From Escherichia coli (GTDB taxonomy: Bacteria > Pseudomonadota > Gammaproteobacteria > Enterobacterales > Enterobacteriaceae): DNA of 64,000 nucleotides. Of this stretch, positions 11,104 through 64,000 are shown in pieces; positions within the stretch are counted from its first letter, which is position 1; every line of letters starts with the position of its first letter. The notes under the pieces were generated by a model. The model ran no database searches and was not told the DNA's origin. It saw only the letters and a program-made list of their open reading frames with translations. The stretch is from NCBI RefSeq assembly GCF_029227855.1, contig NZ_CP074356.1; one strand, given 5' to 3'. The translations under genes were made by a program, and so were the position numbers.

Positions 11104-12024
11104 TTACGCCAGAACCCTCTCTAGCTTATTCACCGCCGCCACATACTTCGCCGGATTTTTATCTTTAAGCACCGCCAGATTGCGTTGCTTCCAGCGAATA
11201 GCCGGAAGATGCTGAATTTCAGGATAGCGATACCGCGACCAGTCAGGGCTGTTTTGCTTAAAACTGAGCAAGAACTCGCGATCCAGATCCGTAAGATGTG
11301 ACTTCAACGCCTGCGGCAGCAAAGTCGTTACTGACAGAAGCGATTCCAGCGACGTTTCCTGTTGCGTCATCCCTGAAAATTCCTGCGCGTACAACGTGGC
11401 GATCCGCTCTGTATCCCAGTTTGGAGCCAGCAACTCGGCGATGGGGCGGGGATGGCCTGCCAGATAACAAAGAAAACCGTCAAAGATCTCCCGCATCAGT
11501 CCCGGTTTCTCCAGCATATTCAGCACATCAAACAGATCGCGCGGGTGCTGACGATCAAGCGCAGCGCAGATTTTACCGCCATAAAGATCCGCCAGCGAGA
11601 CGACACTCATGGTGGTGAAGCCATACTCCATTTCCACACGTTCGCACACAGGCATTTCTGCCGGAGGCAACAACAGCCCGCGCCAGACCGGGCTAACCTC
11701 GATCTTAATCTTTGCATCAGCGGTATTCACAATGATGCGCTTTTCATCCGCTTTATTTTCCTGCCGAATCGCGGTGATCCCCGGTCTGCCGTTCAGCGAT
11801 GCAGTAATCCTCTTCAAAGCGTCGTTGATAGCCGCCAAATCAGTATCGCGATCCGCAAAGCTCTTGTACGCCAGATCAATATCCACCGACAGACGGGGAA
11901 AATCCTGCACAAACAAATTGATTGCGGTGCCGCCTTTCAACGCGAAACAGGACTCCTTCGCCACATACGGCAGAGCGGCCATCAACAGTTTGACCTGCCG
12001 GGCATAGCTATCACGCAGATCCAT
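11104..12024 (-). CDS. abiEii: AbiEii-type nucleotidyltransferase toxin (DUF1814 family)
   Basis: 306 aa; NTase motif GGTAINLF...RLSVDIDL; 14-nt overlap with upstream partner. Confidence 0.7.
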   Translation of the reverse strand: MDLRDSYARQVKLLMAALPYVAKESCFALKGGTAINLFVQDFPRLSVDIDLAYKSFADRDTDLAAINDALKRITASLNGRPGITAIRQENKADEKRIIVNTADAKIKIEVSPVWRGLLLPPAEMPVCERVEMEYGFTTMSVVSLADLYGGKICAALDRQHPRDLFDVLNMLEKPGLMREIFDGFLCYLAGHPRPIAELLAPNWDTERIATLYAQEFSGMTQQETSLESLLSVTTLLPQALKSHLTDLDREFLLSFKQNSPDWSRYRYPEIQHLPAIRWKQRNLAVLKDKNPAKYVAAVNKLERVLA

Positions 12025-12814
12025 CTTCGACTCCTTCCGGTTTAAATGCGCGTGGAACAGTAATTTGATAATCCGGCTCCAGCCAGCCGCCGGGTATGAT
12101 TTGCCGCTTTCCCGTACCTGTTTCTATACCGCTTTGATCAATATACTGAAAATAAGGGTGTCCATTACGCCGGGCAAGGTAAAGCATCACCCGGTTGGTT
12201 TTAACCGAATGGCTGGCGCGAAGCAGTGCCTGCAATTTGCGTGGGCTGAGAAGATTCAACCCCTGAAACAGAGCATCGGCATGTTCGAACGAGATTAACG
12301 AAGGAACGCCGCAGGCGATCTCATACGCGGCCAGTTCCGGAACACTGCCTGCTAACTGGCGGTCGCCAATTTTCAGTTCCGTAGTAAATGGCGTTACATC
12401 AGCGGTAAGGCCTGACGTATACAGCGTGACAAACGTTGCGGATTGTTCAAAGGCAGAAAACCATCCCGGCAGTTTGACGTAAGCCGGAAGCGCGAGCCAG
12501 ACCTGCGGCTTACCCTGTTCGGTATAGTGCGCATGACCCTGAAGCGCAAGGCTGGTTAGCCCCGCCACCCGAACAGGCTTTTCCCACTGCGATTGCAGGC
12601 AGTAAACCGCATCCACCCAATCCGGTTCACGACCCGTCCGGCAGTATACGCCGTGAGCGATCCGCCTGAGCCAGCCATTCTTCACATAGAGATAAGAGAG
12701 CTTACGATCTATGCCGTTGCGGGTAAGCCATGACTGGAGCAGCACCTGGCCGGGTAGCGTGTGCTGCATCAGCCAGTTTAGATAGTTTGGCAACTGTCGC
12801 CTCTGAATAGACAT
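12011..12814 (-). CDS. abiEi: AbiEi-type antitoxin / transcriptional regulator
   Basis: 267 aa; sits immediately upstream of and overlapping the NTase gene, the usual AbiE arrangement. Confidence 0.6.
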   Translation of the reverse strand: MSIQRRQLPNYLNWLMQHTLPGQVLLQSWLTRNGIDRKLSYLYVKNGWLRRIAHGVYCRTGREPDWVDAVYCLQSQWEKPVRVAGLTSLALQGHAHYTEQGKPQVWLALPAYVKLPGWFSAFEQSATFVTLYTSGLTADVTPFTTELKIGDRQLAGSVPELAAYEIACGVPSLISFEHADALFQGLNLLSPRKLQALLRASHSVKTNRVMLYLARRNGHPYFQYIDQSGIETGTGKRQIIPGGWLEPDYQITVPRAFKPEGVEDGSA

Positions 12815-13108: not shown

Positions 13109-14884
13109 ATGACATATCAGGCAATTTTCACTGGCTGGGATGATCTGACGATTGAAGACCTTCTGGTCGCTTACCGGAAAGCAAAAGCCGATAGCTTCTT
13201 TGAGAATACATTTCCTGTTGCTATCAAATTTGCCGAGTATGAGCAGGAATTACTTGAAAACCTGCAAAAACTCTTAGATCTTTTGCAGAGCGAAGATGGA
13301 TTCAGTAGCAATAAGAAGTTGATTGGCAAATTTCGTTTGTTACCGAAAAAATTAACCACAAAGAAAAAACATGAATCCCAAAATGGACACGTCCACTTTT
13401 CTAATCCTAAACGAGCAGCCGACCATTTATTTAATAATTTTGATCTGATACCAGAGTTTCGTATTATTGGTGACTTCCCGGTTGATAGTCACATTATCTC
13501 TGCACTATGGATTAACATGGTCGGGCATAAATTTGATGCCAGCTTAGATAACTGTTGCTATGGCGCGCGGCTAAAGCGTATTCGTAATGATGAATTATTT
13601 AGCGATGAGCAGGATAATCCATTCCATATCAGTGCCGTGGGTTCTTTTAGCCCCTACTTCCAGCCCTACCAAAAATGGCGTGGTGATGGCTTAAAAGCTA
13701 TACGTGACGAGTTGGAAAAAGATCGTGACATTATCGCCGCCTCACTGGATTTAAAAAGTTACTATCATTTTATTGATCCACTGGCTATAACCTCTGATGA
13801 TCTCTATAACACACTAAACATAAAACTGACTGAGGATGAAAAAGCGTTTACTGCACAGTTAGCAGTATTCTTAAAGCACTGGTCTGACGGCGCAGCGGCA
13901 TTTGGAAAGAAAATAGCGTACAAAACACCTGTTATTAATGGTGGTCTGGTCATTGGATTAACAGCCAGTCGGATCATTTCAAATATATTGCTACACCATT
14001 GGGATAAATTAGTCATTGAAAAACTATCACCAATTCACTACGGTCGTTATGTCGATGATATGTTCCTTGTAATACGCGATACAGGGACAATTACTAATAA
14101 TCACGAATTTATGTTATTGCTGCAAGATAGGCTTGGCAATGATTGCGTTTATTTGAAAAACGAGCAAAAACAAATATGGCAAATACAGCAGGGCGAGCAT
14201 TTCCAGGGTAAGACCACCATCCAGTTACAATCCGATAAGCAAAAACTTTTCGTGCTTCAAGGGAGGGCTGGAATAGACCTGCTCGACAGTATCGAAAAGG
14301 AGATCTACGAGCTTTCTAGTGAACACCGCTTGATGCCTTCACCGGATCAACTGGAACACTCCACCGCAGCTAAAGTCCTTTCCGCTGCCGGTAGTGTAGG
14401 TGAAAATGCCGATACTCTGCGCCGTGCGGATGGATTAACCATTCGTCGTTTGGGCTGGTCACTGCAATTACGCTACGTTGAAACACTGGCACGAGATCTG
14501 CCTCCAAGTGAATGGAAAGAACAGCGGGAAGAGTTTTATCAGTTTGCCTACAACCATATTCTTAGGGCTGATAATCTATTTGCACATTTTAGTTATCTGC
14601 CAAGGCTGCTTGGCTTTGCTATCAGTATGAATGAATGGCAGCACGCGGAAAAAATTGTACTTAAAGCTTACGAATCCATCAACCTGTTGGCATCGGTGAT
14701 TACTTCAGGTAAGGAAGTGAATATAAATGGTTGCAAAACTCGAGCAGTAAATGATCTTTGGCGCTGTATAAAAGGCACATTAAGCTGGCTATTTGTTGAT
14801 GCAGCGACACGATATTACAGTCCTGACAGATTATTTCTTGATAAACGTTCAAAGAAAGAAGAGTGCCTTGCGGATACATTTTAA
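13109..14884 (+). CDS. Reverse transcriptase (UG/Abi-type defence RT); likely the N-terminal part of an RT-nitrilase fusion interrupted at a T4 tract
   Basis: 591 aa; RT motifs in order: FRLLPKK (motif 1), LDLKSYYHFID (A), GGLVIGLTASRIISNIL (B'), YGRYVDDMFLV (C, YxDD); stop codon TAA begins inside TTTT at 14879-14882. Confidence 0.8.
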   Translation: MTYQAIFTGWDDLTIEDLLVAYRKAKADSFFENTFPVAIKFAEYEQELLENLQKLLDLLQSEDGFSSNKKLIGKFRLLPKKLTTKKKHESQNGHVHFSNPKRAADHLFNNFDLIPEFRIIGDFPVDSHIISALWINMVGHKFDASLDNCCYGARLKRIRNDELFSDEQDNPFHISAVGSFSPYFQPYQKWRGDGLKAIRDELEKDRDIIAASLDLKSYYHFIDPLAITSDDLYNTLNIKLTEDEKAFTAQLAVFLKHWSDGAAAFGKKIAYKTPVINGGLVIGLTASRIISNILLHHWDKLVIEKLSPIHYGRYVDDMFLVIRDTGTITNNHEFMLLLQDRLGNDCVYLKNEQKQIWQIQQGEHFQGKTTIQLQSDKQKLFVLQGRAGIDLLDSIEKEIYELSSEHRLMPSPDQLEHSTAAKVLSAAGSVGENADTLRRADGLTIRRLGWSLQLRYVETLARDLPPSEWKEQREEFYQFAYNHILRADNLFAHFSYLPRLLGFAISMNEWQHAEKIVLKAYESINLLASVITSGKEVNINGCKTRAVNDLWRCIKGTLSWLFVDAATRYYSPDRLFLDKRSKKEECLADTF

Positions 14885-16316
14885 TCATATTTCACAAAGT
14901 CTGACGAATCTAAAGGATTTACTGGATCTTCGCTTTGATTCAGCAGATTTTTATTTAAAAGCGCCATTGGTAGCTCGAGCTGATTTAGCAAAGGAACCTT
15001 ATAAACAGATCGTAAAGAGTCAGTCGGCAGAAAAACTTGTTAATCAGCGTGATAGTAAAAAAGAAGTTAAAATACTGAAATTAATGAGCGACTCATCGCT
15101 TATTGATATTGACGTTATTAAGCTATTTTTGAAATCAACCAAGAATACCCGACTGGAAAAAGTGGCTAAAGGAAATCGTAAGAACGAAAGTTACCTACCT
15201 TACATTTTCCCTACACGTCCTTTAACACCCGCTGAAATATCAGAACTGGCCCCCGAATGTGTTGGATTACCCTCCACATCCGACAAAAAACCAGATGAGA
15301 GACCGTCCACCATTTGGGCAAAATATACTCAAGCATTACGCGGAGTATGGATCAAACCGACGTTGCTAGCATCGGAGCAGGACTCAGATGAAGCGACAAA
15401 AAAAGCTCGGCCTAAGAAATTCATTCATATTGGCACAGACAGGAAACATAAAGTTGTCGTTGCGCTAACCAGCATTAAAACAGAGGAGGACGACTGGGCT
15501 AAAATGGCCTGCAATAAATCTAACTTGTCCCGTTCAAGGTACCAGCGGATTTCTGAACTGGTTAATGCAACATTGAAACTATCTCCTAAACCTGATTATG
15601 TTTTATTCCCTGAGCTTTCAATCCCGTTACGCTGGGTTAACAGTATTGCTGATCGTTTGAGTTCGGCGGGTATCAGTCTAATTGCGGGAACAGAATACCG
15701 CCACTTAGACGATAATCAACTGAAGAGTGAGGCCGTACTTGTCCTTTCAGATAACAGACTCGGCTATCCAGCGAGTGTCAAAATATGGCAACCCAAGCTG
15801 GAACCCGCCGTAGGTGAAGATGAGGCATTATTTTCAACTTATGGTAAGTCTTGGGATTCGACACTTAATGTTAAACAACGTAAGCCGGTATATATTCATC
15901 ACGGCGTCAATTTTGGCGTTATGATTTGCTCTGAACTCCAGAATAGTAAAGCGAGGATCCGTTTTCAGGGCGCACTCGATGCATTAATGGTATTGAGCTG
16001 GAATAAAGATCTAGATACGTTTGCATCGTTGATTGAATCAGCAGCGCTGGATATTCATGCCTATACTATTTTAGTGAATAACCGAAAATACGGCGATAGT
16101 CGCGTACGTTCCCCGGCAAAAGAACCCTTTATGCGTGATATTGCTCGTGTGAAGGGCGGTGATAATGACTTTGTGGTCGCTGCAACGCTGGATATCGACT
16201 CGTTAAGGGCATTTCAGAGCAGGGCAAAACGCTGGCCTAAAGGCGGCGATAAATTCAAACCGTTACCTGAAGGATTCCAGTTGGCAAAGAACCGCAAAAA
16301 GCTACCGCCAAAATAA
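14793..16316 (+). CDS. Nitrilase / CN-hydrolase domain protein; probable C-terminal part of the RT-nitrilase protein (frame +1 relative to the RT ORF)
   Basis: 507 aa as called (TTG start, no convincing RBS); nitrilase-like triad context YVLFPELSIP (Glu), VKIWQPK (Lys), GVMICSELQN (Cys); overlaps RT ORF by 92 nt. Confidence 0.75.
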   Translation: MLMQRHDITVLTDYFLINVQRKKSALRIHFNHISQSLTNLKDLLDLRFDSADFYLKAPLVARADLAKEPYKQIVKSQSAEKLVNQRDSKKEVKILKLMSDSSLIDIDVIKLFLKSTKNTRLEKVAKGNRKNESYLPYIFPTRPLTPAEISELAPECVGLPSTSDKKPDERPSTIWAKYTQALRGVWIKPTLLASEQDSDEATKKARPKKFIHIGTDRKHKVVVALTSIKTEEDDWAKMACNKSNLSRSRYQRISELVNATLKLSPKPDYVLFPELSIPLRWVNSIADRLSSAGISLIAGTEYRHLDDNQLKSEAVLVLSDNRLGYPASVKIWQPKLEPAVGEDEALFSTYGKSWDSTLNVKQRKPVYIHHGVNFGVMICSELQNSKARIRFQGALDALMVLSWNKDLDTFASLIESAALDIHAYTILVNNRKYGDSRVRSPAKEPFMRDIARVKGGDNDFVVAATLDIDSLRAFQSRAKRWPKGGDKFKPLPEGFQLAKNRKKLPPK

Positions 16317-17686: not shown

Positions 17687-18940
17687 TTACGCACGAATGG
17701 TGTAATCACCAATGCCGATCCACTTGTAAGTGGTCAGTGCTTCCAGCCCCATTGGGCCACGCGCGTGGAGTTTTTGTGTGCTTACCGCCACTTCCGCACC
17801 CAGTCCAAACTGGCCGCCGTCGGTAAAACGCGTAGAGGCGTTAACGTAAACAGCGGACGAATCCACTTCGTTAACAAAACGCTGGGCGTTGCGCATATCG
17901 CGGGTCAGGATCGCATCGGAGTGTTGTGTGCCGTGTTCACGAATATGGGCGATGGCATCGTCAAGATCGCTGACGATTTTGACGTTCAAATCTAATGACA
18001 GAAACTCATCGTCATACTCTTCGGCTTTAACAGCCACCACCTTCGCGGGGCCTGCCTGCAACTGCGCCAGCGCAGCTACATCTGCGTGTAATGTCACGCC
18101 GCTTTCCGCCATTTGCTTGCTTAATGCGGGCAGGAAGCTATCGGCGATGTTTTTATTTACCAGCAACGTTTCTACCGTATTACATGTGCTCGGACGCTGA
18201 GTTTTCGCGTTGACAATTACTTTCAGGGCTTCAGCGATCTCTGCACTTTCATCAACGTAAATATGGCATACGCCTATACCGCCTGTGATCACCGGGATTG
18301 TCGACTGTTCGCGGCACAGCTTATGCAGGCCAGCGCCACCACGCGGGATCAGCATGTCGATGTATTTATCCATACGCAGCATTTCACTGACCAGCGCGCG
18401 GTCAGGATTATCAATCGCCTGTACTGCGCCTGCCGGTAAATCGCAGGATTTCAGGGCGTCCTGAATCACCGCCACCGTTGCAGCGTTAGTGCGACAGGTT
18501 TCTTTGCCACCACGCAGGATCACTGCGTTACCGGTTTTCAGGCACAGCGAAGCGACATCAACCGTCACGTTCGGGCGAGCTTCATAAATCACGCCAATCA
18601 CCCCCAGCGGTACGCGACGACGCTCCAGACGCAGACCGCTGTCCAGCACACCACCATCAATCACCTGCCCCACCGGATCGGCGAGGTTGCACACCTGGCG
18701 CACATCATCGGCAATGCCTTTCAGCCGTGCGGGCGTCAGTGCCAGACGGTCAAGCATCGCTTCGCTAAGGCCATTGGCACGCGCGTCAGCAACATCCTGG
18801 GCGTTAGCGTTGAGGATGATTTCGCTTTGTGCTTCCAGTTCATCGGCGATTTTTTCCAGCACGCGATTTTTTTCGCGACTGGAGAGTTGCGCTAATTTAT
18901 ACGAGGCTTGCTTCGCGGCAATGCCCATTTGTTCCAGCAT
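17687..18940 (-). CDS. proA: Gamma-glutamyl phosphate reductase
   Basis: 417 aa; aldehyde dehydrogenase-family catalytic Cys region; conserved proBA operon. Confidence 0.9.
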
Positions 18941-28597: not shown

Positions 28598-29521
28598 CTA
28601 GCGCGTTCGCTGTGAAAGCACCTGCTGCTTATCCAGCTTTTGCACCAGCGGCTGCACCACTTTATCCCCATGCTGACCAAAGTATTGATACAGCGTATCG
28701 GACGCACTTTTGGTCAGCACCATAATCTCAATGCGTCGGTTGCCCGCGCTTTGCGGATTTTTCGCGTCCAGCAGCATCTGGTCCGCCATCGCGCTCACCT
28801 GCATCACTTTATCTTCCGGCATTCCGGCCTCTTCCAGCACCCGACGAGCCGAAAGCGCGCGATCGCCCGAAAGGTTCCAGTTGTTGTAGATATTGTTTTT
28901 GTAGGCCATCGCATCGGTATGCCCTGTAATAATAATTTTGTTATCGAGCGAGTCGAACACTGGCGCGAGCTCCACCAGCAAAGTTTTAAAGAACGGCATA
29001 ATCTGTGCGCTGCCGCGTTCAAACATATTGCGGTTCTGGTCATCTTTAATCAGCACGCGCAATCCCTGGGGAACAATCTCCATCTCCAGATTCGCTTCCA
29101 TATGTGCATCACGGGCAATGGTGTTGATACTGGTCGCCAGCTCGCCAAGCTCAGTAGCGGATTTCTTCTTCAGCAGCGCCGTTTTCTCATTGACGTCACG
29201 CGCTTTTTTCTCCGTCTCTTCCGGCACCGCCACGGTGGCAGGTTTTGGCGGATGAGACGGGCTGATTTTATTTAACGGCGACAACCCGCCGCCATTGAAA
29301 ATCGACTGCCCGTGCAGCGCGGCGATAATGCTTTCACGCTCGGATTTACTGACGCTGTTGACAATCCACAGCGTCATAAACAGCGCCATCATTGCCAAAG
29401 TAAAGTCGGCGAACGCCACCTTCCACGCCCCGCCGTGGTGCCCGGCATGATTCTTTTTGATCTGCCGCCGGACGATGGTGGTTTTTGCCCCACGCTCGCG
29501 GCGGTTGCCCGTCTTTCTCAT
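28598..29521 (-). CDS. lafU: Lateral flagellar motor stator protein LafU (MotB-like, OmpA-type C-terminal domain); upstream GTG at 29554 is an alternative start
   Basis: TM helix followed by a peptidoglycan-binding OmpA-like domain; directly downstream of the MotA-like gene. Confidence 0.8.
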   Translation of the reverse strand: MRKTGNRRERGAKTTIVRRQIKKNHAGHHGGAWKVAFADFTLAMMALFMTLWIVNSVSKSERESIIAALHGQSIFNGGGLSPLNKISPSHPPKPATVAVPEETEKKARDVNEKTALLKKKSATELGELATSINTIARDAHMEANLEMEIVPQGLRVLIKDDQNRNMFERGSAQIMPFFKTLLVELAPVFDSLDNKIIITGHTDAMAYKNNIYNNWNLSGDRALSARRVLEEAGMPEDKVMQVSAMADQMLLDAKNPQSAGNRRIEIMVLTKSASDTLYQYFGQHGDKVVQPLVQKLDKQQVLSQRTR

Positions 29522-29523
29522 GC

Positions 29524-30387
29524 TTATTCTTGCTCCAGCATCGCATTCACCCACGCGTCGAGGTTGGCGAAGGTCGGTTTAGATGCCAGATGCAGCAGCT
29601 TACGCCCGGCGTCCACCGCCAGCAGGGTCGGTTTGCCGCCTGCCTGCGCCACCAGCACGGTGCGCACGCATTCCAGCAAAGAATGTTCCGCCCGTGCCTG
29701 TTGTTCCATGGCGTTGGCAAGCGGGTCCATCAGGCAGTAGCAGATAAAGACGCCTAAAAACGTCCCCACCAGAGCCGCCGCCACTTTCAGGCCAATCAGG
29801 GCGATAGATCCATCAATCGACTGCATGGTGATGATGATGCCCAGCACCGCCGCGCAAATACCAAATCCCGGCATCGCTTCGGCAGTACGTTGCAGCGAGC
29901 GCGACGGCGTTAACAGGGACTCTTCCGCGGTGTCCAGTTCCTGATCGAGAGTGCCTTCCAGTTCATGGGCGTCAATCTTGCCCATCGCCATCAGGCGAAA
30001 GTTATCGGCAATAAAGGTCACCAGCCGCTTCTGGGTTAACACCAGCGGGTATTTCTGGAAAACGGTGCTCTCTTCCGGCTGCTCAATATGCTGATCCAGC
30101 ATGCGCAGGCCGCCGTTTTGTACCATTTCAAGCAACTCATACAGGCACATTAATAGCTGACGCTGAAACTCCGGCCCGAGCTGTTTTTTACTGATCACGC
30201 CTTTAATTTGATGGGCAATCTCTTTCAGCACATGTTTCGGGTTACCAATAATCATCGCCCCAAAACCGGCACCCAAAATAATGATCATCTCCGCCGGTTG
30301 CCAGATAGCCACTAATTGCCCGCCCGCTTCAAAATAACCGCCAAATACGCAGCCGAGCACCACCAGTAAACCTAATATTTTTTGCAT
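29524..30387 (-). CDS. lafT: Lateral flagellar motor stator protein LafT (MotA/PomA-like)
   Basis: 287 aa, four TM segments, MotA-like. Confidence 0.85.
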   Translation of the reverse strand: MQKILGLLVVLGCVFGGYFEAGGQLVAIWQPAEMIIILGAGFGAMIIGNPKHVLKEIAHQIKGVISKKQLGPEFQRQLLMCLYELLEMVQNGGLRMLDQHIEQPEESTVFQKYPLVLTQKRLVTFIADNFRLMAMGKIDAHELEGTLDQELDTAEESLLTPSRSLQRTAEAMPGFGICAAVLGIIITMQSIDGSIALIGLKVAAALVGTFLGVFICYCLMDPLANAMEQQARAEHSLLECVRTVLVAQAGGKPTLLAVDAGRKLLHLASKPTFANLDAWVNAMLEQE

Positions 30388-37219: not shown

Positions 37220-38197
37220 TTACCCCAATAAATTCCTCACCGTCTGACTGGAAATTCGCGCCTGACCATTCACCGCCTGCAATAAAACTTGATAGTTATG
37301 ATTGGCGCTATCCAGCACGCCGCCGAGATTTTCCGACGCCTGCACGGCGCTTTCCGTTTGCGGGAAGCGCGACATGCCGTCGATCAACTGCCGCGCCTTT
37401 TCCTGCTGTACCGCCATCTGCACACGCTGCTGATTAATGCTTTCTAACGTCTGAGAAATCCCCGCTCCGCCCTGTTGCAGGCTTTGCACTAAGCGGTCCG
37501 CCTGCGACGGTTCGGCAAAGGTTTTTAGTGGCATAAACGCTGATTTATCACCATCGGTGCGCACGCTTAGGGTGCTTTCAATGTTGGGCCACTGTTTTTC
37601 AGTGGTGGAGAAACTTATACCATCGGCGTTTTGATGCATCTGCACGCCCACGCGGCGCAGGGCGTTGGTCAGCCGCGTCTGGTACTGCCCAGCGCTGTCA
37701 TCCTCAGACAGCATCACCGCCGAAAGCTGAGTCTGCCGCCCGTCAGAGACGCTGAACATGCGCGTTCCCGGCGTGGGATTGTGTACGAGATTCGCCAGAT
37801 CCGGCGAGTGAAAAGTCACCCGCGCTTCCCCCTGCAACACTGGCTGCAACTGGCGGTCCACCGCACCGCCGGAAAGCGCGGTGCGTTTGTCCAGCATCTG
37901 CATCAGCGCCGAACTCTGCGCCTGCCCGCCCTTACGCTGGCTATGACGATAATCGAGCAACTGCTGCTCCAGTTGCCCGAGATAGTGATCCGCCTGCTGC
38001 AACGTGGTGAGCTGGTCGTTAAGCTGCACGCTGTAACGCTGCGGGCGAGTGGTAATCAGCGGCGAGGCCGGATATTCACTCGCCGTCGCCGGGAGTTTTT
38101 GCCGCACCTCCTGAGTGGGCGCAACGGTTGACGACGATACCGCAACGCTATGCGCGCCGCCGGTGGCGAGTGACGAAGATGTAAATCCGACCTGCAT
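37220..38197 (-). CDS. lafW: Flag-2 lateral flagellar protein LafW (function unclear)
   Basis: 325 aa Gln/Ser-rich protein immediately downstream of lfgL on the same strand. Confidence 0.5.
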   Translation of the reverse strand: MQVGFTSSSLATGGAHSVAVSSSTVAPTQEVRQKLPATASEYPASPLITTRPQRYSVQLNDQLTTLQQADHYLGQLEQQLLDYRHSQRKGGQAQSSALMQMLDKRTALSGGAVDRQLQPVLQGEARVTFHSPDLANLVHNPTPGTRMFSVSDGRQTQLSAVMLSEDDSAGQYQTRLTNALRRVGVQMHQNADGISFSTTEKQWPNIESTLSVRTDGDKSAFMPLKTFAEPSQADRLVQSLQQGGAGISQTLESINQQRVQMAVQQEKARQLIDGMSRFPQTESAVQASENLGGVLDSANHNYQVLLQAVNGQARISSQTVRNLLG

Positions 38198-38213: not shown

Positions 38214-39167
38214 TTAGAGAACGCTGAACAAATTCAACTCACTCACTTTCGAGTAAGTCTTGAGGGTAGCTTCCATTGCTACTTCCAGTCCGGTAAAGGT
38301 GATCGACGCCGGGCCGTAATCGAGATCCTGTAATGAACCAATCAGCTCATCATTAGAGGTAGAGATATCGGTCTGCGCATCGCTCAACATCGACATGGTG
38401 TTCTGCGTCTCGCCGAGCGACGCAATCGAGGCGTTGAGGTTATCCGAGGCGGTGTCCACCACATCAACGGCGTTCTGAATATCGCTCTGCACCTGCGGAT
38501 CGGCCGGGTCAACGTTTGGGTCTTGCAACTCCTGGGAGAGCGAATTGAGCGTGTTGAGCACATCTAAATTGCTGCCGAAGAAATCGCTCGCCGCCACGTT
38601 GGTATCCACTTCCACGCCGTTCGACACCGTGGTCTGGCGGTGGTCGCTGTTGCCCTGATAGCTGTAGCTATCGGTCACGCCGTCGCCGTCATCGTCCACC
38701 GCCACAATCGGCGGCTGATCGTTGATAGTGCCGCCAAACACGTAGTGCCCGTCTTCGTCCTGATAGTTCAGCGCCGCGACCATTGATTCGGTGAGCGACT
38801 CAATATCCTGCCCGAGACTTGCGAGCGAATCGGCGGTATTGGTGCCATTCGCCGCTTCCAGCAGGTCGTCGCGCACCGCCAGCAGGCTGTTGTTGACGCC
38901 ATCAAGGATTGATTCCTGCTGACTTAACCCCGCCGACGCGGAGTCGATATTGCTCTGATACTGCTCAATCGCCGACTGTTGGCGGTTCAACTGGGTGATG
39001 CGCGTGGCGGCGATCGGGTCATCCGACGGCTGCAAAATCTGCTTGCCGGTTGCCATCTGCTCGACCACATGCGCCAGATCGCCGGAGAGATTATTAAAAC
39101 TTTGCGTCATCGAGACGTAGGTTTGTTGGGTGGTTACTTGCATTTTCGCGCTCCCGCTTAGCTGCAC
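38214..39167 (-). CDS. lfgL: Flagellar hook-associated protein 3 (FlgL-like)
   Basis: 317 aa; flagellin-like terminal helices; follows the FlgK-like gene. Confidence 0.75.
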   Translation of the reverse strand: MQLSGSAKMQVTTQQTYVSMTQSFNNLSGDLAHVVEQMATGKQILQPSDDPIAATRITQLNRQQSAIEQYQSNIDSASAGLSQQESILDGVNNSLLAVRDDLLEAANGTNTADSLASLGQDIESLTESMVAALNYQDEDGHYVFGGTINDQPPIVAVDDDGDGVTDSYSYQGNSDHRQTTVSNGVEVDTNVAASDFFGSNLDVLNTLNSLSQELQDPNVDPADPQVQSDIQNAVDVVDTASDNLNASIASLGETQNTMSMLSDAQTDISTSNDELIGSLQDLDYGPASITFTGLEVAMEATLKTYSKVSELNLFSVL

Positions 39168-40534
39168 ATTTCCAGCACCGAATCGAAAATCTCGGCCCCG
39201 GCGGAAATGACTTTCAGATTGGCTTCATAAATTTGTTGATAGGTGATCAGGTTAACCGCCTCTTCGTCCATGCTGACGCCGCTGACGCTGCTCTGCTGGT
39301 TTTGCGCTGCGGAATAGACATTGGACGCGGCATCGACTTCCGTCTGGTTTTGCTGGCTGTAAATGCCGATATTGCTGATGATTGACGAGCACGCCTGCCC
39401 GACCGTCACGCTGCCGAGGTTGGCTATTTCCAGCGGTTCGGTGGAGATATTGATCAGCGCCTGGAGGTTGTCGCTGTTGCCGCTTTCGTCCGGCGAACTG
39501 GAGAACGCCAGCTCATCGGCGGTGATATCCGGGTTAACGGTCAGCGGGCCATCGGCGTTGCTGGCGTCATAAATAAACAGCGGCTCGCCGGGGTTACCGT
39601 TGAGATCGTAGCCCTGCGCCAGCTGGTTGTTAACCGCATCGGCGAACTGCGACGCCATACTGTTGATGGTGTCGGTCAGCGGCGTCAGCACGTCGTTTTG
39701 ATAATCAAACAGTGCGCCTAATGAACCGCCGGTGTCGGTAGTCATCGTCGAGGTGGTGCCAGCGAAAGTCAGCGACATGGTCGGCGTGCCGTCGGCGTTG
39801 GTTTCCAGCTCGATGGTCGAGCTTTGCTGCCCGCTCACCAGCGGTTGACCGTTTTTCAGGGTAACGTTGTAGTTGCCCTGGTCGTCGATATTGACCTGCA
39901 CATCCATCATGCCGCTCAGTTCTTCCACCATCTGATCGCGGGCGTCGTACAGCGCGGAGGCGTTATCGCCGTTGGCTTCGGCCTGAGCGATTTGCTGGTT
40001 ATAGCTGGCGATGCCGCTGGTGAGCGTGTTGATTTGCGACACCATTGCCTGCTGCTGGCTGATGAGTTCCGTGCTTTGCGAGTCGATGTAATCCAGCGTG
40101 TTGTCGATACGCAGCGACAGCGCCCCGGCTTCGCTGATCACCTGCTCGCGCAGGGCGGAATCATCGGGGCTGGTGGTCGCTTCGTTAAGGGCGGCGAAGA
40201 AGTTATCGAACCCGCCGCTCAGGCTGCTGTTATCGTCGTTCAGTACCGCTTCCAGTTGCGTGAGATACCCCTGCTGGGTGCTGTAATAGCCGTAATCACT
40301 GGCGGCATACCACACCTGATTCACCTGATACTGGTTAGAGACGCGGCGAATGCTGTCGACCTGCACGCCGTTACCGGCGCTGTTCGGCGAACCACCGCTG
40401 GCGCCGATGGTGCTGATCTCCGCCACCTGGCGGGTGTAGCCCGTGGTCATGGCGTTGGCGGTGTTTTGCGCCGTGACGTTCAGCTCCACCTGCGCGGTTG
40501 ATGCGCCGCTGTAGCCGATGTTAATCATATCCAT
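39158..40534 (-). CDS. lfgK: Flagellar hook-associated protein 1 (FlgK-like)
   Basis: 458 aa; conserved N-terminal rod/hook-family motif. Confidence 0.8.
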   Translation of the reverse strand: MDMINIGYSGASTAQVELNVTAQNTANAMTTGYTRQVAEISTIGASGGSPNSAGNGVQVDSIRRVSNQYQVNQVWYAASDYGYYSTQQGYLTQLEAVLNDDNSSLSGGFDNFFAALNEATTSPDDSALREQVISEAGALSLRIDNTLDYIDSQSTELISQQQAMVSQINTLTSGIASYNQQIAQAEANGDNASALYDARDQMVEELSGMMDVQVNIDDQGNYNVTLKNGQPLVSGQQSSTIELETNADGTPTMSLTFAGTTSTMTTDTGGSLGALFDYQNDVLTPLTDTINSMASQFADAVNNQLAQGYDLNGNPGEPLFIYDASNADGPLTVNPDITADELAFSSSPDESGNSDNLQALINISTEPLEIANLGSVTVGQACSSIISNIGIYSQQNQTEVDAASNVYSAAQNQQSSVSGVSMDEEAVNLITYQQIYEANLKVISAGAEIFDSVLEMCS

Positions 40535-40610
40535 GTTGGATCCTTACCGGTAAATCGTGCCGGTTAAAAGCGGCGTTAGGTTGGGGATTCTTAAGTGGGA
40601 GGTGGTGCCC

Positions 40611-40910
40611 TCATTTATGCTTCGGCGACAACTGCTTCACAATCATCGCCGCGATCCCAATCCCGTGCTGCTGCGCCAGGGTGTTACACAACTCATCGTC
40701 ATAAAACCCCTGCATCATGCGCGCCGAATCGCTGTTAAACGGGTTATCTTTTGAATCAAACAACTCGTTGGTTTTACGCATCTCTTTGAGCATATTGCGT
40801 AAAAAAATCGCCTCAAACTGTTCGGCGGCCTGCCTGATATCATTGGCCTGAACCTTCGGCCCCATTAACGCATCGCTGCCGTCAATCCCGCCGCTGCCGT
40901 TAACTTTCAT
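40611..40910 (-). CDS. lfgJ: FlgJ-like rod-binding protein (rod-cap domain only, no muramidase domain)
   Basis: 99 aa; FlgJ N-terminal-like motif EAIFLRNMLKEMR. Confidence 0.65.
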   Translation of the reverse strand: MKVNGSGGIDGSDALMGPKVQANDIRQAAEQFEAIFLRNMLKEMRKTNELFDSKDNPFNSDSARMMQGFYDDELCNTLAQQHGIGIAAMIVKQLSPKHK

Positions 40911-42025
40911 CAGATCACCTCCAGGTCGGCATCCAGCGCGCCCGCCTCATGCAGCGCCTGCAAAATCGACATAATGTCATCCGGCGTCGCGCCTAAACTG
41001 TTCAGCGCATTGACCAGCGTTTTCAGGCTGCTCGACTCCGGCAAACTCACCACGCCCGGACGGGCATGATTCACCGCGATATTGCTCTGCGGCGTTACCG
41101 CCGTGCGCCCGCCCGCAAACGCATTCGGCTGGCTGACGTTGCTGGTTTCGTTAATCGAGACGGTCAAACTGCCGTGCGACACCGCCGCCGCGTGCAGCGC
41201 GACGCCATCGCCCATCACCACCGTGCCGGTACGCGAGTTAAACACCACGCGGGCGTGGATTTTCTCCGCCTGCACCTGTACGTCATCCAGTTGCGACATA
41301 AACGCCACCCGCGCGCCGGGGCTGGTCGGCGCACGCACAGTAACGTTGGTGGAACTCTGCGCCGTGGCAATGCCGCCAAACGAGGCGTTGATCGCCGCCG
41401 CAATGTTGTTGGCGTCTTTAAACGACGGGCGTTTCAGGTTGAGGGTGATGGTATCGCCCATCTGAAAATCGCTGGGGATCTCGCGCTCCACCGTTGCGCC
41501 GTTAGGAATTAACCCGGCGGTTGGTGTATTAACCGTTACGCTCGAGCCGCTTGCCCCGGTGGCATTCATCCCACCCACCACCACGCTGCCCTGCGCCAGG
41601 GCATATACTTCGCCATCCGCGCCGTGCAACTGCGTAAGCAATAAAGTGCCGCCGCGAATACTTTTGGCATCTCCAATCGACGAAACGGTGACATCAATAG
41701 TCTGCCCGCGCGAGTACATCGGCGGCAATGTGGCGCTCACCGCCACTGCGGCGACGTTTTTCACCTTCGGGTCGATTTTATTCGGCAACTGCACGCCAAA
41801 CTGGCGCAGCATATTGGTGATGGTCTGGTTGGTGAATTTGACCTGGTTTTTATCACCGGTACCGTCGAGGCCGACCACCAGGCTGTAGCCGACCAGTTGG
41901 TTTTCACGCACGCCCTGTACGTTAACCAGCGACTCCAGCGATTGCGCCAGCGCCACGCCGGGCAGCGTCAGACTTACGGCGATCGCTGCGGCCTTTATCC
42001 AGTTTTGCATTGCACTCTCCGGCAT
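40910..42025 (-). CDS. lfgI: Flagellar P-ring protein (FlgI-like)
   Basis: 371 aa with signal peptide. Confidence 0.85.
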
Positions 42026-49720: not shown

Positions 49721-49751
49721 CCCCTCGCCCCTTCGGGGAGAGGGTGAGGGG
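49721..49751. repeat. GC-rich imperfect palindrome (CCCCTCGCCCC..GGGGAGAGGGTGAGGGG)
   Basis: Shares the GGGGAGAGGGT..GAGGGG motif, in inverted orientation, with the element at 59434-59472. Confidence 0.4.
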
Positions 49752-49809
49752 CAAAGCACGCACAGCCCTCCTTACCCATCAAATTAACCCCTTAACTCAC
49801 CTAAACACC

Positions 49810-52281
49810 ATGCCAACACCAACCCTCATCAAAACACTCGCCACTCACCGCGAAAAACCGTTCGTCAGCGTCGTCACGCCCACATGGAACCGTAGCGCAT
49901 TCCTGCCGTACCTGCTCTATATGTACCGCTATCAGGATTACCCGGCAGACCGCCGCGAACTGGTCATCCTCGACGACTCGCCGCAAAGCCATCAACACAT
50001 CATCGACCGCCTGACCAATGGCACACCGGAAGCCTTTAACATCCGCTATATTCATCACCCGGAAAAACTGCCACTGGGCAAAAAACGCAACATGCTCAAC
50101 GAACTGGCGAGCGGCGAATACATCCTCTGCATGGACGATGACGACTACTACCCGGCAGATAAAATCTCTTACGCCATCGCCATGATGCAAAAACACCGGG
50201 CGCTCATCTCCGGTTCCGACCAGATCCCCATCTGGTACAGCCACATCAATCGCATCTTCCAAAGCCGCAGCTTTGGCTCACATAACATCCTCAACGGCAC
50301 CTTTTGCTATCACCGTAACTACCTGAAAAAGCACCGTTACGACGATGATTGTAATTTAGGCGAAGAGAAAAGTTTCACCAACAATTTCAGCGTTAACCCG
50401 CTACAACTGCCCGGCGAGCGCACGATTCTGTGTATCTCGCACAGTCACAACACCTTTGATAAAGATTTTATTCTCGGGGCTAGCACGCCAGTAAACGCGG
50501 CGCTTACGGATATCGTCCGCGATCCGCTGCTGCGCAATGCTTATCTGAGTCTGCATAACGCCACTCATCACCAGGCGATCGATCAGGTCGTACTGATCAA
50601 TCTGGATAAACGCCCGGATCGCTTACAGCAGATCCGTGAAGAACTCACATTGCTGTATATTCCGCCTGAGAAGATCACCCGCCTTGCCGCCAGTGAAAAT
50701 GAAAACGGTCAACGGGGTCGCCGCCAGTCACACTTGCAGGCGCTGCGCCTGGCGCAACAGCACGGCTGGCAAAACTACCTGCTGCTGGAAGATGACGCAG
50801 TTATTCTCAAGCAGGAGAAACATATTCAGGTACTGAACACGCTGCTCGCGAGCCTGGCGAAAATTCCCTGGCAGGTGATGATCCTTGGCGGCGAAATTTC
50901 GCAGGGAACGATGCTAAAAAGTTTGCCGGGGCTGGTGCACGCGCGGGACTGCCGCAAAGTGTGCGCTTATCTGGTGAACAGTCGCTACTACCCGCAACTG
51001 GCGCAGCAGATGAGCCACAATGAACACTCGCTGGAAGACGGCTGGCAGCCGCTGCTACGCGCCGACAAATGGCTGGCCTGTTACCCGAGCCTTAGTTATC
51101 AGCGACCGGGCTTTAGTGATATCGAGAAAAAAGTGACCGACAACATTGCTCACTATTTCAATAAGTTACCCGTTATCACAAAGCCATCCGCATTACCCAT
51201 CGCCGACACCATCGGCTTTTTTATGGAAACCTCCTTCCACTACGCGCTCTACCGCCCAATCATCACTGCTCTACAGGTGCAGGGGCAGAGCTGCACGCTG
51301 GTGATCAATGACCGCGTGTTTAAACCGTTTCTTGATGAGATGCTGGAAACACTGAAAAACATCGACGATCCGCAGCTTAAAGGAATGCGCTTATCTGAAA
51401 TGCAGGCACACGGTCAGCGGGTGAAATGCCTGGTCAGCCCCTACCACACGCCCGCGCTCAATGGCCTGGCAGCGGTGAACGTTCGCGCCATGTACGGCTT
51501 AGCCAAAGAGACGTGGAACCACGCCGACTGGAACCGTTTTTATCAACGCATTTTGTGTTACAGCCACTACAGCCAGCGGGCGCTGGCGCATTTCGGCAAT
51601 GCAAAAGCAGTCGGCAACCCGCGCTTCGACGCCTGGCATAACGGCACGTTTGCCCGCACTCTGCCGGAAAATATTCAACCCGATTCCCGTAAACCTACGG
51701 TGCTCTATGCCCCCACGTTTGGCGCATTAAGCTCCCTGCCCCACTGGGCAGAAAAATTAGGCCGCTTAAGTGGCAATGTGAATCTGATTTGCAAACTGCA
51801 CCACGGCACCTGCTCGCGCCCGGAAGAAGCGGCATCGCTGGCCCTGGCGCGCAGGCATTTAAAACAGCGCACCGACTCCGCCCGCCACACGCTGGCGCTG
51901 CTGGCAAAGGCCGATTACGTGCTGACCGATAACAGCGGCTTTATTTTCGATGCTATTCACGTTGATAAGCGGGTGATCCTGCTCGACTTTCCGGGCATGG
52001 CAGCGTTGCTCGACGGTGAGAAAAGTTACTCCACGCCGGAGAGCGCCGATCAGCAAATCCGCGAAATATTGCCGGTGGCTCATGATATGGCAGAGTTGCG
52101 TTACTTGTTGTCAGAGGCGTTTGACTGGGGGGCGGTGCAGGCGCGGCTTACGAAGATTCGCCATCACTATTGCGATGCGTTTATGGATGGCAAAGCGGGA
52201 GAACGGGCGGCGATGGTGATTGTGGAGGCGCTGGCGGACAAGGAATCGTCAGGGATATGTCGATATAATTCGATTTTTTAA
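49810..52281 (+). CDS. Multidomain glycosyltransferase: GT2 domain, GT25-like domain, and C-terminal CDP-glycerol glycerophosphotransferase (TagB/TagF-like) domain
   Basis: GT-A signature VSVVTPTWNR...ILDDSP with a DDDDYY acidic motif; middle LINLDKRPDRL; C-terminal VLYAPTFG (TagF-type YAPT motif); track ORF starts at 49744 inside the GC-rich repeat. Confidence 0.65.
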   Translation: MPTPTLIKTLATHREKPFVSVVTPTWNRSAFLPYLLYMYRYQDYPADRRELVILDDSPQSHQHIIDRLTNGTPEAFNIRYIHHPEKLPLGKKRNMLNELASGEYILCMDDDDYYPADKISYAIAMMQKHRALISGSDQIPIWYSHINRIFQSRSFGSHNILNGTFCYHRNYLKKHRYDDDCNLGEEKSFTNNFSVNPLQLPGERTILCISHSHNTFDKDFILGASTPVNAALTDIVRDPLLRNAYLSLHNATHHQAIDQVVLINLDKRPDRLQQIREELTLLYIPPEKITRLAASENENGQRGRRQSHLQALRLAQQHGWQNYLLLEDDAVILKQEKHIQVLNTLLASLAKIPWQVMILGGEISQGTMLKSLPGLVHARDCRKVCAYLVNSRYYPQLAQQMSHNEHSLEDGWQPLLRADKWLACYPSLSYQRPGFSDIEKKVTDNIAHYFNKLPVITKPSALPIADTIGFFMETSFHYALYRPIITALQVQGQSCTLVINDRVFKPFLDEMLETLKNIDDPQLKGMRLSEMQAHGQRVKCLVSPYHTPALNGLAAVNVRAMYGLAKETWNHADWNRFYQRILCYSHYSQRALAHFGNAKAVGNPRFDAWHNGTFARTLPENIQPDSRKPTVLYAPTFGALSSLPHWAEKLGRLSGNVNLICKLHHGTCSRPEEAASLALARRHLKQRTDSARHTLALLAKADYVLTDNSGFIFDAIHVDKRVILLDFPGMAALLDGEKSYSTPESADQQIREILPVAHDMAELRYLLSEAFDWGAVQARLTKIRHHYCDAFMDGKAGERAAMVIVEALADKESSGICRYNSIF

Positions 52282-61893: not shown

Positions 61894-62676
61894 ATGCGCA
61901 CAAGCGACGTTACGCAACTGATGGATCTGGCGCTGGGGCTGTGGTTTCCCTTCGTGCGCATTATGGCGTTTCTGCGCTATGTGCCGGTGCTGGATAACAG
62001 CGCCCTGACCGTGCGCGTGCGGATTATTTTGTCGCTGGCGCTGGCAATCATCATCACGCCGTTGATCCCCCATCCCATTCCCCACGATCTGCTTTCACTC
62101 AACAGCCTGATCCTGACGGTGGAGCAAATTTTATGGGGCATGTTGTTCGGGCTGATGTTTCAGTTTCTGTTTCTCGCGCTACAACTGGCCGGACAAATTC
62201 TCTCGTTCAATATGGGGATGAGCATGGCGGTGATGAACGACCCGAGCAGCGGCGCATCGACCACCGTGCTGGCGGAGTTAATCAACGTCTATGCGATCCT
62301 GCTGTTTTTTGCCATGGACGGGCATCTGCTGCTGGTAAGCGTGCTGTATAAGGGCTTCACCTACTGGCCGATTGGTAACGCGCTGCATCCGCAAACCCTG
62401 CGCACCATCGCGCTGGCCTTTAGCTGGGTGCTGGCGTCCGCATCACTGCTGGCGCTGCCGACCACCTTCATCATGCTGATTGTGCAGGGCTGCTTTGGCC
62501 TGCTCAACCGCATCGCGCCGCCGCTGAACCTCTTTTCGCTCGGCTTTCCCATCAACATGCTGGCGGGGCTGGTTTGCTTTGCCACCCTGCTCTACAACCT
62601 GCCGGATCACTATCTGCATCTGGCGAATTTTGTGTTGCAGCAACTCGACGCGCTGAAAGGTCACTATGGCGGATAG
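61894..62676 (+). CDS. lfiR: Flagellar export apparatus protein (FliR-like)
   Basis: 260 aa multi-TM protein from MRTSDVTQL; track ORF starts at 61843. Confidence 0.8.
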   Translation: MRTSDVTQLMDLALGLWFPFVRIMAFLRYVPVLDNSALTVRVRIILSLALAIIITPLIPHPIPHDLLSLNSLILTVEQILWGMLFGLMFQFLFLALQLAGQILSFNMGMSMAVMNDPSSGASTTVLAELINVYAILLFFAMDGHLLLVSVLYKGFTYWPIGNALHPQTLRTIALAFSWVLASASLLALPTTFIMLIVQGCFGLLNRIAPPLNLFSLGFPINMLAGLVCFATLLYNLPDHYLHLANFVLQQLDALKGHYGG

Positions 62677-63805
62677 CAGCAGCGAAGAAAAAACAGAGAA
62701 ACCCTCGGCGCAAAAGCTGCGTAAAGCGCGTGAAGAGGGGCAACTGCCGCGCTCGAAGGATATGGGGCTGGCAGCGAGCCTGTTTGCAGCGTTTGTGGTG
62801 ATCTCCAGCAGTTTTCCGTGGTATGCCGATTTTGTGCGCGAGAGTTTTATCAGCGTGCATCAGTACGCGCAGGAGATTAATAACCCGCAGGTGATCGGTC
62901 AGTTTCTGCGCCACCACCTGTTAATTCTCGGCAAGTTTATCCTTACGTTGCTGCCGATGCCCGCCGCCGCGCTGCTCTCTTCGCTGGTGCCGGGCGGCTG
63001 GCTGTTTCTGCCGAAAAAAATCCTCCCGGATTTCAGCAAAATTAGCCCGTTAAAAGGCATTGGGCGTCTGTTTTCCAGTGAACATCTGGCGGAAACGGGA
63101 AAGATGACGGTGAAGTCTGCCGTGGTGCTGGTGATGCTGTGGGTAAGCCTGCGCAATAACTTTGCCGCCTTTCTCGGCCTGCAGGCGCTGCCGTTCAAAC
63201 TGGCGATGAATGACGGTTTGTCGCTCTACGCCAGCGTGATGCGCAACTTTGTCATCCTGTTTATTTTCTTTGCGCTTCTCGACGTGCCGCTGGCGAAAGC
63301 CCTGTTCACCAAAGGGCTGAAGATGACCAAACAAGAACTGAAAGAAGAGTACAAAAATCAGGAAGGCAAGCCGGAAGTGAAGGCGCGCGTGCGGCGGCTG
63401 CAACGGCAGCTGGCGATGGGGCAAATTCGCAAAGTGGTGCCAAAGGCCAACGTGGTGATCACCAACCCGACCCACTACGCCGTGGCGTTGCAGTATGACC
63501 AGTCGCGTGCCGCCGCGCCGTTTGTGGTGGCGAAAGGCACCGATGAAATCGCCCTCTATATTCGCCAGGTCGCTGCTGAAAGTCAGGTGGAAGTGGTCGA
63601 GTTCCCGCGGCTGGCGCGCTCGGTTTACTATACCACTCAGGTGAATCAGCAAATTCCTTTTCAGCTTTACCGGGCTATCGCCCACGTTCTGACCTACGTC
63701 CTGCAAATGAAACACTGGCGCGAGGGCGCACAGCCGCGCCCGGCCCTGAACAGACATATTTCCATTCCCAAAGAGGTGCTTAAACTGGATGGCGAAAACA
63801 ACTAA
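62666..63805 (+). CDS. lfhB: Flagellar export apparatus switch protein (FlhB-like)
   Basis: 379 aa; NPTH autocleavage motif (VVITNPTHYAVAL). Confidence 0.9.
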   Translation: MADSSSEEKTEKPSAQKLRKAREEGQLPRSKDMGLAASLFAAFVVISSSFPWYADFVRESFISVHQYAQEINNPQVIGQFLRHHLLILGKFILTLLPMPAAALLSSLVPGGWLFLPKKILPDFSKISPLKGIGRLFSSEHLAETGKMTVKSAVVLVMLWVSLRNNFAAFLGLQALPFKLAMNDGLSLYASVMRNFVILFIFFALLDVPLAKALFTKGLKMTKQELKEEYKNQEGKPEVKARVRRLQRQLAMGQIRKVVPKANVVITNPTHYAVALQYDQSRAAAPFVVAKGTDEIALYIRQVAAESQVEVVEFPRLARSVYYTTQVNQQIPFQLYRAIAHVLTYVLQMKHWREGAQPRPALNRHISIPKEVLKLDGENN

Positions 63806-64000
63806 ATCGTTCCTCGCGCTGCTGCGCGGCGGCAATCTCGGCGTGCCGCTGGTCATTCTATGCATTCTGGCAATGGTTATTCTGCCGCTGCCGCCTGCGC
63901 TGCTGGATATTCTGTTCACCTTCAACATTGTGCTGGCGGTGATGGTGCTGCTGGTGGCGGTGTCAGCGAAAAGGCCGCTGGAATTCAGCCTGTTCCCGAC
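63789..64000 (+). CDS. lfhA: Flagellar export gate protein (FlhA-like), N-terminal part; 3' end outside window
   Basis: MAKTTKSFLALLRGGNLGVPLVILCILAMVILPLPP..., FlhA-like N-terminal TM region; start overlaps the lfhB end. Confidence 0.85.
   Translation, partial: MAKTTKSFLALLRGGNLGVPLVILCILAMVILPLPPALLDILFTFNIVLAVMVLLVAVSAKRPLEFSLFP

Follow-up and report, generated by a model that had tools for sequence, protein, structure and literature searches.

The lfgJ gene of the Flag-2 (lateral-type) flagellar locus of Escherichia coli encodes the N-terminal rod-binding domain of FlgJ alone, without a fused or adjacent lytic domain. Analysis of the window, the whole 64,000-nucleotide stretch of DNA studied here, and of related genomes indicated that LfgJ probably acts as the scaffold-only FlgJ of Flag-2 and that the wall is opened for this system by a separately encoded enzyme, with the peptidase YafL as the leading candidate; we assign a probability of about 0.7 to this reading. 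A FlgJ with the scaffold domain only is a well-known situation and not an anomaly, precedents being Rhodobacter SltF and Borrelia BB0259; the pattern has been known since the early 2000s, and its occurrence in the Flag-2 locus is likewise already known and ordinary. RefSeq already annotates a rod-binding-only FlgJ of a secondary flagellar system, and the finding itself is routine. The question that it raises is which enzyme takes lateral and Flag-2 flagella across the wall, and no published answer was found in the literature searched. The gene-neighbourhood results described below supply a concrete and cheaply testable candidate and propose both a function and an origin for the product of an orphan E. 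coli K-12 gene, YafL.

The N-terminal domain of FlgJ serves as rod cap and scaffold, and the C-terminal glucosaminidase opens the peptidoglycan hole (PMC8517470, PMC7277832). FlgJ is exported via its own rod and acts at the tip of that rod (PMC8517470). When the glucosaminidase is missing, a separate Sec-exported lytic transglycosylase binds FlgJ and cuts the wall, as has been described for the single-domain FlgJ partners SltF in Rhodobacter and BB0259 in Borrelia (PMC8517470, PMC7277832).

The lfgJ reading frame (positions 40611 to 40910, minus strand) has an ATG start and encodes 99 aa. We take this gene product to be LfgJ as defined in the naming of Flag-2 genes by Ren et al. 2005 (J Bacteriol 187:1430), which PMC4637896 and PMC6993521 cite. 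The assignment was based on the ORF, on a Pfam result restricted to PF10135, on the PGAP designation of "rod-binding protein," which is the call (WP_275877393.1) at the same coordinates in strain JNEC-KY178, and on likeness to E. coli FlgJ. A domain search, which had been proposed as a check in a first-pass annotation of this DNA, detected Rod-binding (PF10135) as the sole Pfam domain of LfgJ, at residues 42 to 93 with an E value of 3.2e-14. The score of 53.6 bits exceeded the gathering score of 25.1, and the full profile (positions 1 to 51) was covered. The score against TIGR02541, the equivalog model for dual-domain FlgJ, was 68 bits versus a cut-off of 193, and the match was confined to N-terminal model positions 21 to 91, placing LfgJ outside this family; a PF01832 Glucosaminidase domain with its catalytic glutamates was not found in LfgJ by Pfam. 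The PF10135-only result and the low TIGR02541 score confirmed the claim of the first-pass annotation that this 99-aa FlgJ-like protein has the rod-binding domain only. Residues 22 to 98 of LfgJ aligned in BLASTP with residues 30 to 102 of E. coli FlgJ at 35% identity, and the C-terminal end of LfgJ coincided in the alignment with the beginning of the E. coli FlgJ linker. The latter protein has 313 aa and contains Rod-binding at 50 to 97 and PF01832 Glucosaminidase at 160 to 295 by Pfam. This homology to the N-terminal domain of FlgJ identifies LfgJ as the scaffold half.

LfgJ scored 87.8 and 87.6 bits against the NCBIfam PRK12708 models NF009349 and NF009351, missing the respective cut-offs of 141 and 183 bits, and is a relative but not an equivalog. 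The two models (97 to 140 positions) are named "peptidoglycan hydrolase" yet span the rod-binding region only; the name is a misnomer, and misleading annotation could spread from it. A hydrophobic (Sec) signal sequence was not detected in LfgJ, and its first ~20 residues were variable in the alignment and predicted to be disordered (low-confidence helical model). The AF2 model of the protein had a pLDDT of 55.6, a low confidence that was too poor for a fold search. A search of PDB sequences with the LfgJ profile gave no match, which indicates that no structure of a rod-binding domain has been solved.

The gene lies in a rod/ring operon between flgI and flgK, a position common to five syntenic loci. 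Directly upstream and in the same operon is lfgI (40910 to 42025, minus strand) for the P-ring protein (Pfam FlgI, E = 9e-134), and directly downstream is lfgK (39158 to 40534, minus strand) for hook-associated protein 1 (Pfam FlgK_D1, E = 2e-64). Direct reading of the sequence revealed a stop/start overlap, TGATG (40908 to 40912, minus strand), in which the flgI stop and the lfgJ ATG share 1 base, with a Shine-Dalgarno motif (GGAGG) just 5' of the lfgJ start. In the K-12 Flag-1 operon, flgI and flgJ are joined by an identical 1-nt overlap. This arrangement suggests translational coupling of lfgJ to flgI. At the other end of the gene, the lfgJ-lfgK spacer (40535 to 40610) measures only 76 bp. 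The 1-nt overlap with flgI and this short spacer before flgK exclude a muramidase that is fused, frameshifted or located in an adjacent ORF; the first-pass annotation had named such a domain, recovered by frameshift correction or in a neighbouring ORF, as the observation that would overturn its reading, and a search for one gave nothing, as none of the frames contains GH73-like sequence. Compared to the 76 bp of this window, the spacer measures 188 to 421 bp in most other E. coli strains, in which one to three more REP/BIME palindromic units are present (GCCGGATGCGGCG...CGCATCAGGC). The additional spacer DNA was considered as a potential domain remnant and rejected, as it consists of REP/BIME repeats with no coding remnants.

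The Flag-2 locus, from lafU to flhA, was mapped from the PGAP table to positions 28598 to 64000, with flhA running off the end of the window. It is bordered by dinB at one end and by hicB, yafL and dpaA at the opposite end, and PGAP annotation together with these flanks places lafK, lafA, lafS, lafT, lafU, lafW and lafZ at the dinB/yafL site, as is characteristic of Flag-2. The architecture seen here matches the description of the enterobacterial Flag-2 locus in PMC6993521. Over positions 17999 to 63986, the window is 99.96% identical to the chromosome of E. coli strain JNEC-KY178. Each of the Flag-2 genes inspected in the window is a full-length ORF (e.g., flgC, 143 aa). The flhB gene (62666 to 63805) is intact, with 379 aa, whereas JNEC-KY178 lacks one C at 63531 and has an flhB that is marked as frameshifted by PGAP. 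Elsewhere in the locus, comparison with JNEC-KY178 revealed an in-frame 15-bp deletion at 50572 in the gene for an 845-aa glycosyltransferase (49744 to 52281); the deletion is located at a short direct repeat (CAGGCGATCAACCAT). Flag-2 has been deleted from most E. coli, with lfhA'/lafU' scars remaining, and is frameshifted in strain 042 (PMC6993521, PMC4637896); the system is not expressed in the E. coli ST131 strain EC958 under laboratory conditions (PMC4637896).

Conservation of the short protein was examined within and beyond the species. Among 5426 complete E. coli genomes, 1275 contained lfgJ, which had the same length in 1273 genomes, and the protein was 95 to 97% identical to other E. 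coli alleles. Homologues of LfgJ formed 104 clusters of 55 to 134 aa from the genera Escherichia, Citrobacter, Leclercia, Scandinavium, Dryocola, Buttiauxella and Pseudescherichia; PF10135 was the only recurrent precomputed domain in these clusters, and a lytic domain was present in none. About 100 clusters were in the range of 90 to 134 aa and rod-binding only. An alignment of 18 homologues, extending down to 51% identity, contained 25 invariant columns. With this conservation and its frequency in E. coli, lfgJ greatly exceeds what chance would produce. Rod-binding-only proteins were also detected between flgI and flgK in syntenic lateral-type loci of Tatumella (124 aa) and of a metagenome-assembled genome (118 aa) and in the lateral loci of Photobacterium aphoticum (173 aa) and Vibrio campbellii (182 aa). 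A search of 1.84 billion representatives with the LfgJ profile produced 5137 matches. Among the best 140 matches outside the LfgJ family, 72 were of 200 aa or less, 54 had a GH73 domain and 6 had an SLT domain; the proportion of short proteins among these 140 indicates that the single-domain form of FlgJ is common. The six SLT-containing representatives exhibit a third FlgJ architecture, in which Rod-binding is fused to an SLT lytic-transglycosylase domain that replaces GH73. The absence of the GH73 glucosaminidase (muramidase) domain of enteric FlgJ, noted in the first-pass annotation, was thus upheld as a native and conserved architecture and not a frameshift, and the short LfgJ is not a truncation.

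Comparison with characterised systems placed LfgJ among several forms of FlgJ. The LfgJ of E. coli Flag-2 is this very gene, with the same dinB-yafL site and the same gene order. The dual-domain FlgJ of Salmonella and of E. coli Flag-1 has a homologous rod-binding domain, with 35% identity, and occupies the same place between flgI and flgK, but LfgJ lacks both the Pro-rich linker and the entire GH73 domain of these proteins. The lateral LfgJ proteins of Vibrio and Photobacterium are rod-binding only and have the same flgI-J-K position as the Flag-2 protein; at 173 to 182 aa, however, they carry a C-terminal extension of ~70 aa without a Pfam match, unlike the 99-aa Flag-2 LfgJ. The lateral locus of Plesiomonas shigelloides, which is syntenic (PMC4481668), is the exception, with a 328-aa protein of Rod-binding plus Glucosaminidase at the flgI-flgK position, so that the lytic domain is retained. 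Among the representative FlgJ proteins compared, this lateral protein was closest to the polar FlgJ of the same organism (58% for the C-terminal and 42% for the N-terminal domain), which suggests that it was replaced or converted by the polar paralogue. The FlgJ/SltF pair of Rhodobacter sphaeroides and the FlgJ/BB0259 pair of Borrelia burgdorferi each consist of a scaffold-only FlgJ and a separate Sec-exported wall enzyme (PMC7277832, PMC8517470). LfgJ shares the scaffold-only form of FlgJ with SltF-type systems, but the Flag-2 locus is without an SLT gene and its only locus-linked wall enzyme is a candidate NlpC/P60 peptidase, which differs from SltF and BB0259 in enzyme class and in the bond attacked.

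The window was searched for a separate lytic enzyme. [quoted passage not shown] Custom GH73 and SLT HMMs, which detected the positive controls FlgJ and MltD with E values of 1e-82 and 5e-11, respectively, were run against all six-frame stop-to-stop segments of the window. The best E value for GH73 was 0.035, antisense to proA, and that for SLT was 0.8. An SltF-type SLT-domain gene inside the flagellar cluster was sought in the locus and its flanks with the six-frame HMM, PGAP and Pfam, and none was found. Pfam detected no lytic domain in the unnamed Flag-2 ORFs, which encode a winged-helix regulator, a lysine methylase, a glycosyltransferase, a cytidylyltransferase, FliK, a FliT-like protein and LafU, a MotB-like stator protein with an OmpA peptidoglycan-binding domain (28598 to 29554, minus strand; Pfam MotB_plug and OmpA). 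In the rest of the window, wall-lytic genes were absent among the pao genes, the AbiE pair, the reverse transcriptase with its nitrilase-family gene, and proAB, phoE, crl, frsA, gpt, pepD, yafNOP and dinB. The first-pass annotation had stated that a separate peptidoglycan-lytic gene was not evident in the window, and the tblastn, HMM and ORF domain analyses were all negative and in agreement with that statement. A lytic gene was also not detected within 10 kb of lfgJ in the syntenic loci.

Two potential sources of lytic activity were examined and rejected. LafW (37220 to 38197, minus strand) is a conserved protein of 325 aa without a Pfam or NCBIfam match that is annotated as a Flag-2-specific "hook-associated protein." An AF2 model with a pLDDT of 73 displayed long terminal helices and a central alpha/beta domain, and the best Foldseek matches in the PDB were flagellins (E = 3e-7). 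LafW was rejected as a hidden lytic enzyme on account of this flagellin-like fold, and the model indicates that it is an axial-family protein and not an enzyme. The core gene mltD, situated ~44 kb beyond flhA and not linked to Flag-2, was rejected as a lytic transglycosylase close to the locus.

The locus-linked candidate, yafL, encodes a C40 (NlpC/P60) peptidase and lies outside the window, ~2.4 to 3.1 kb past position 64000 (NZ_AP045174.1, 3992217 to 3992966, minus strand); in JNEC-KY178 it is 0.5 to 1.2 kb beyond flhA. The NlpC/P60 domain (PF00877) of YafL was detected at residues 131 to 241 with an E value of 3e-33. In 26 orthologues the catalytic Cys (DCSGL) and His (DH[MV]GVY) motifs were invariant, and all had a hydrophobic, signal-like N terminus and a conserved region of ~90 residues ahead of the catalytic domain. 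The genomic context of yafL was determined in an alignment scan of one genome per species. The best 80 loci comprised 29 full-length orthologues and 51 paralogues of the MepS/MepH type, whose match was to the catalytic domain only; two orthologue loci were not evaluable, being on short contigs that ended at the match. Flag-2 genes were present within ~4 kb in 27 of 27 evaluable orthologue loci compared to 0 of 51 paralogue loci. The neighbouring genes were lafA, lafS, lafT, lafU and/or flhA and flhB, or an flhA'-lafU' deletion scar. Orthologues were detected in Escherichia, including E. albertii, in Citrobacter, Pseudocitrobacter, Kluyvera, Phytobacter, Cedecea, Pseudescherichia, Ewingella and Mangrovibacter, and in several Enterobacter species.

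Three arrangements of the locus were observed. In E. coli and Citrobacter, dpaA is followed by yafL and then by a convergent flhA, and the other two consist of lafT-lafU-yafL either followed by a convergent flhA or standing alone. Elsewhere in Enterobacterales yafL is the last gene of a lafT-lafU operon, and in 14 loci its first in-frame start was located -4 to +17 nt from a lafU-like stop on the same strand. The lafU gene of the present locus is followed by dinB, whereas a yafL orthologue comes directly after lafU in other genera. In Pseudescherichia an NlpC/P60 gene whose product is 56% identical to E. coli YafL lies between lafU and flhA and overlaps the end of lafU, and in the Tatumella-type locus the start of the NlpC/P60 gene is the last base of lafU. 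A match in T. ptyseos ATCC 33301 was rejected as a lafU-linked copy, being a mepH-type paralogue adjoining anmK-nemA-gloA-rnt; the copy linked to lafU was that of the Tatumella-type locus. For the Hafnia locus the flhA end was examined, and metF follows there. An NlpC/P60 gene was absent after lafU in the Plesiomonas lateral locus, which has the dual-domain FlgJ, and absent from the Photobacterium lateral locus, which has a single-domain LfgJ and no yafL-like gene after motB. By position, yafL looks like an unrecognised component of Flag-2. Co-mention of yafL with Flag-2, lfhA or lafU was not found in the literature searched, outside which Ren et al. 2005 falls, and the linkage of YafL to Flag-2 represents a specific, testable lead that is apparently unreported.

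By analogy with FlgJ, LfgJ would be translated along with the P-ring protein and would use the Flag-2 type III apparatus for its export, after which it would cap and scaffold the growing rod. Type III export would be consistent with the lack of a signal sequence and with the variable, predicted disordered first ~20 residues. A Sec-exported enzyme with a gene of its own would make the peptidoglycan hole, in keeping with the Rhodobacter SltF and Borrelia BB0259 systems and with the need for a separate enzyme that the first-pass annotation had inferred. YafL is the leading candidate for this enzyme on the basis of gene position, a tentative assignment to which we give somewhat less than even odds; it would act on peptide stems or cross-links, and not on glycan strands, to open the mesh. 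To our knowledge, the flagellar partners described for single-domain FlgJ are all lytic transglycosylases and not endopeptidases. If the assignment is true, Flag-2 would be the first case of a flagellum that crosses peptidoglycan by means of a separate endopeptidase instead of a glycan-cleaving enzyme, and confirmation would add an NlpC/P60 endopeptidase of a Gram-negative flagellum to the lytic transglycosylases known as specialised wall enzymes of envelope-spanning machines. A fuller version of this proposal, in which YafL is an ancestral Flag-2 component and a dedicated wall-opening enzyme that replaces the missing muramidase of LfgJ, with yafL and lafU separated by a rearrangement in Escherichia/Citrobacter, is possible and is put forward with more reserve. 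As a result of such a rearrangement yafL would lie next to flhA, away from lafU, and it would outlast deletion of Flag-2.

The wall could also be breached without a dedicated enzyme, by housekeeping lytic transglycosylases and endopeptidases that make the holes and are possibly recruited by LfgJ or rod proteins, with YafL linked to the locus for another reason such as stator anchoring. The absence of a lytic gene from the window and from within 10 kb of lfgJ in syntenic loci fits this explanation, as does the capacity of E. coli to encode several lytic transglycosylases, with mltD ~44 kb beyond flhA. Photobacterium has a single-domain LfgJ and a lateral locus without an NlpC/P60 gene, and YafL can therefore not be a general solution. 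Furthermore, the coupling of yafL is to a stator gene, lafU, and not to rod genes, so that a role in stator anchoring or wall remodelling fits equally well. Conversely, YafL orthologues are exclusively linked to Flag-2 across the three locus arrangements, and the lateral locus that has kept a fused glucosaminidase, that of Plesiomonas, is without a yafL-type gene. We regard this explanation as a substantial minority possibility, and housekeeping lytic transglycosylases would be the next most likely source of the hole if YafL is not responsible. Provision of the activity in trans by the muramidase of Flag-1 FlgJ appears highly improbable. All but one of the 5426 complete E. coli genomes (5425) have a dual-domain flgJ, as do, in consequence, essentially all carriers of lfgJ, but FlgJ is exported through the rod to which it belongs and acts at the tip of that rod (PMC8517470). 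Motility has been described for Tatumella ptyseos, Budvicia and Pragia, which have flag-2 but not flag-1 (PMC6993521), and the existence of such flag-1-less, motile flag-2 species indicates that the hole is probably not derived from Flag-1 FlgJ. As the Tatumella LfgJ is rod-binding only and T. ptyseos is motile without flag-1, Flag-2 would by this analogy work without a FlgJ muramidase.

The remaining alternatives treat the short protein as a product of decay or error. Loss of Flag-2 from most E. coli (lfhA'/lafU' scars), its frameshift in 042 and its lack of expression in EC958 (PMC6993521, PMC4637896), together with the frameshifted flhB of the closest relative, JNEC-KY178, are compatible with a cryptic locus that no longer functions, of which LfgJ would be a remnant in decay and for which wall penetration is not required. 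The short architecture is, however, maintained across genera with 25 invariant columns and is present in functional lateral systems, and the inspected Flag-2 genes of the window, including flhB, are full length; decay is accordingly an improbable explanation. Removal of a fused muramidase domain by a frameshift or an assembly error has already been refuted by the sequence, given the 76-bp gap between lfgJ and flgK, the absence of GH73-like sequence from all frames, the same length of the gene in 1273 E. coli genomes and in many genera, and the REP/BIME nature of the extra spacer DNA elsewhere. The preferred reading remains that of a scaffold-only LfgJ and a separately encoded wall enzyme.

Analysis of yafL in E. 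coli genomes provided further observations. The gene is kept in 5405 of 5426 genomes, most of which are without Flag-2, which makes a different function, or the status of a relic, possible for YafL. No sigma-28-type promoter was obvious by eye in the region ahead of yafL in E. coli. The yafL alleles fell into two bands of identity to that of this strain, at least 95% in ~1144 genomes and 90 to 95% in 4241 genomes; the number in the former band is close to the 1275 Flag-2-positive genomes, as expected if the allele is linked to the presence of Flag-2. In strain EN-1077 a fragment of a C40 peptidase is annotated adjoining fliS. Outside the Flag-2 locus, the window contains a small defence-like island (13109 to 16316 and 11104 to 12814) that adjoins tRNA-Thr and an integrase remnant. 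In this island the gene for an RNA-directed DNA polymerase (591 aa) overlaps a carbon-nitrogen hydrolase (nitrilase-family) gene (507 aa), and an AbiEi/AbiEii toxin-antitoxin pair is also present.
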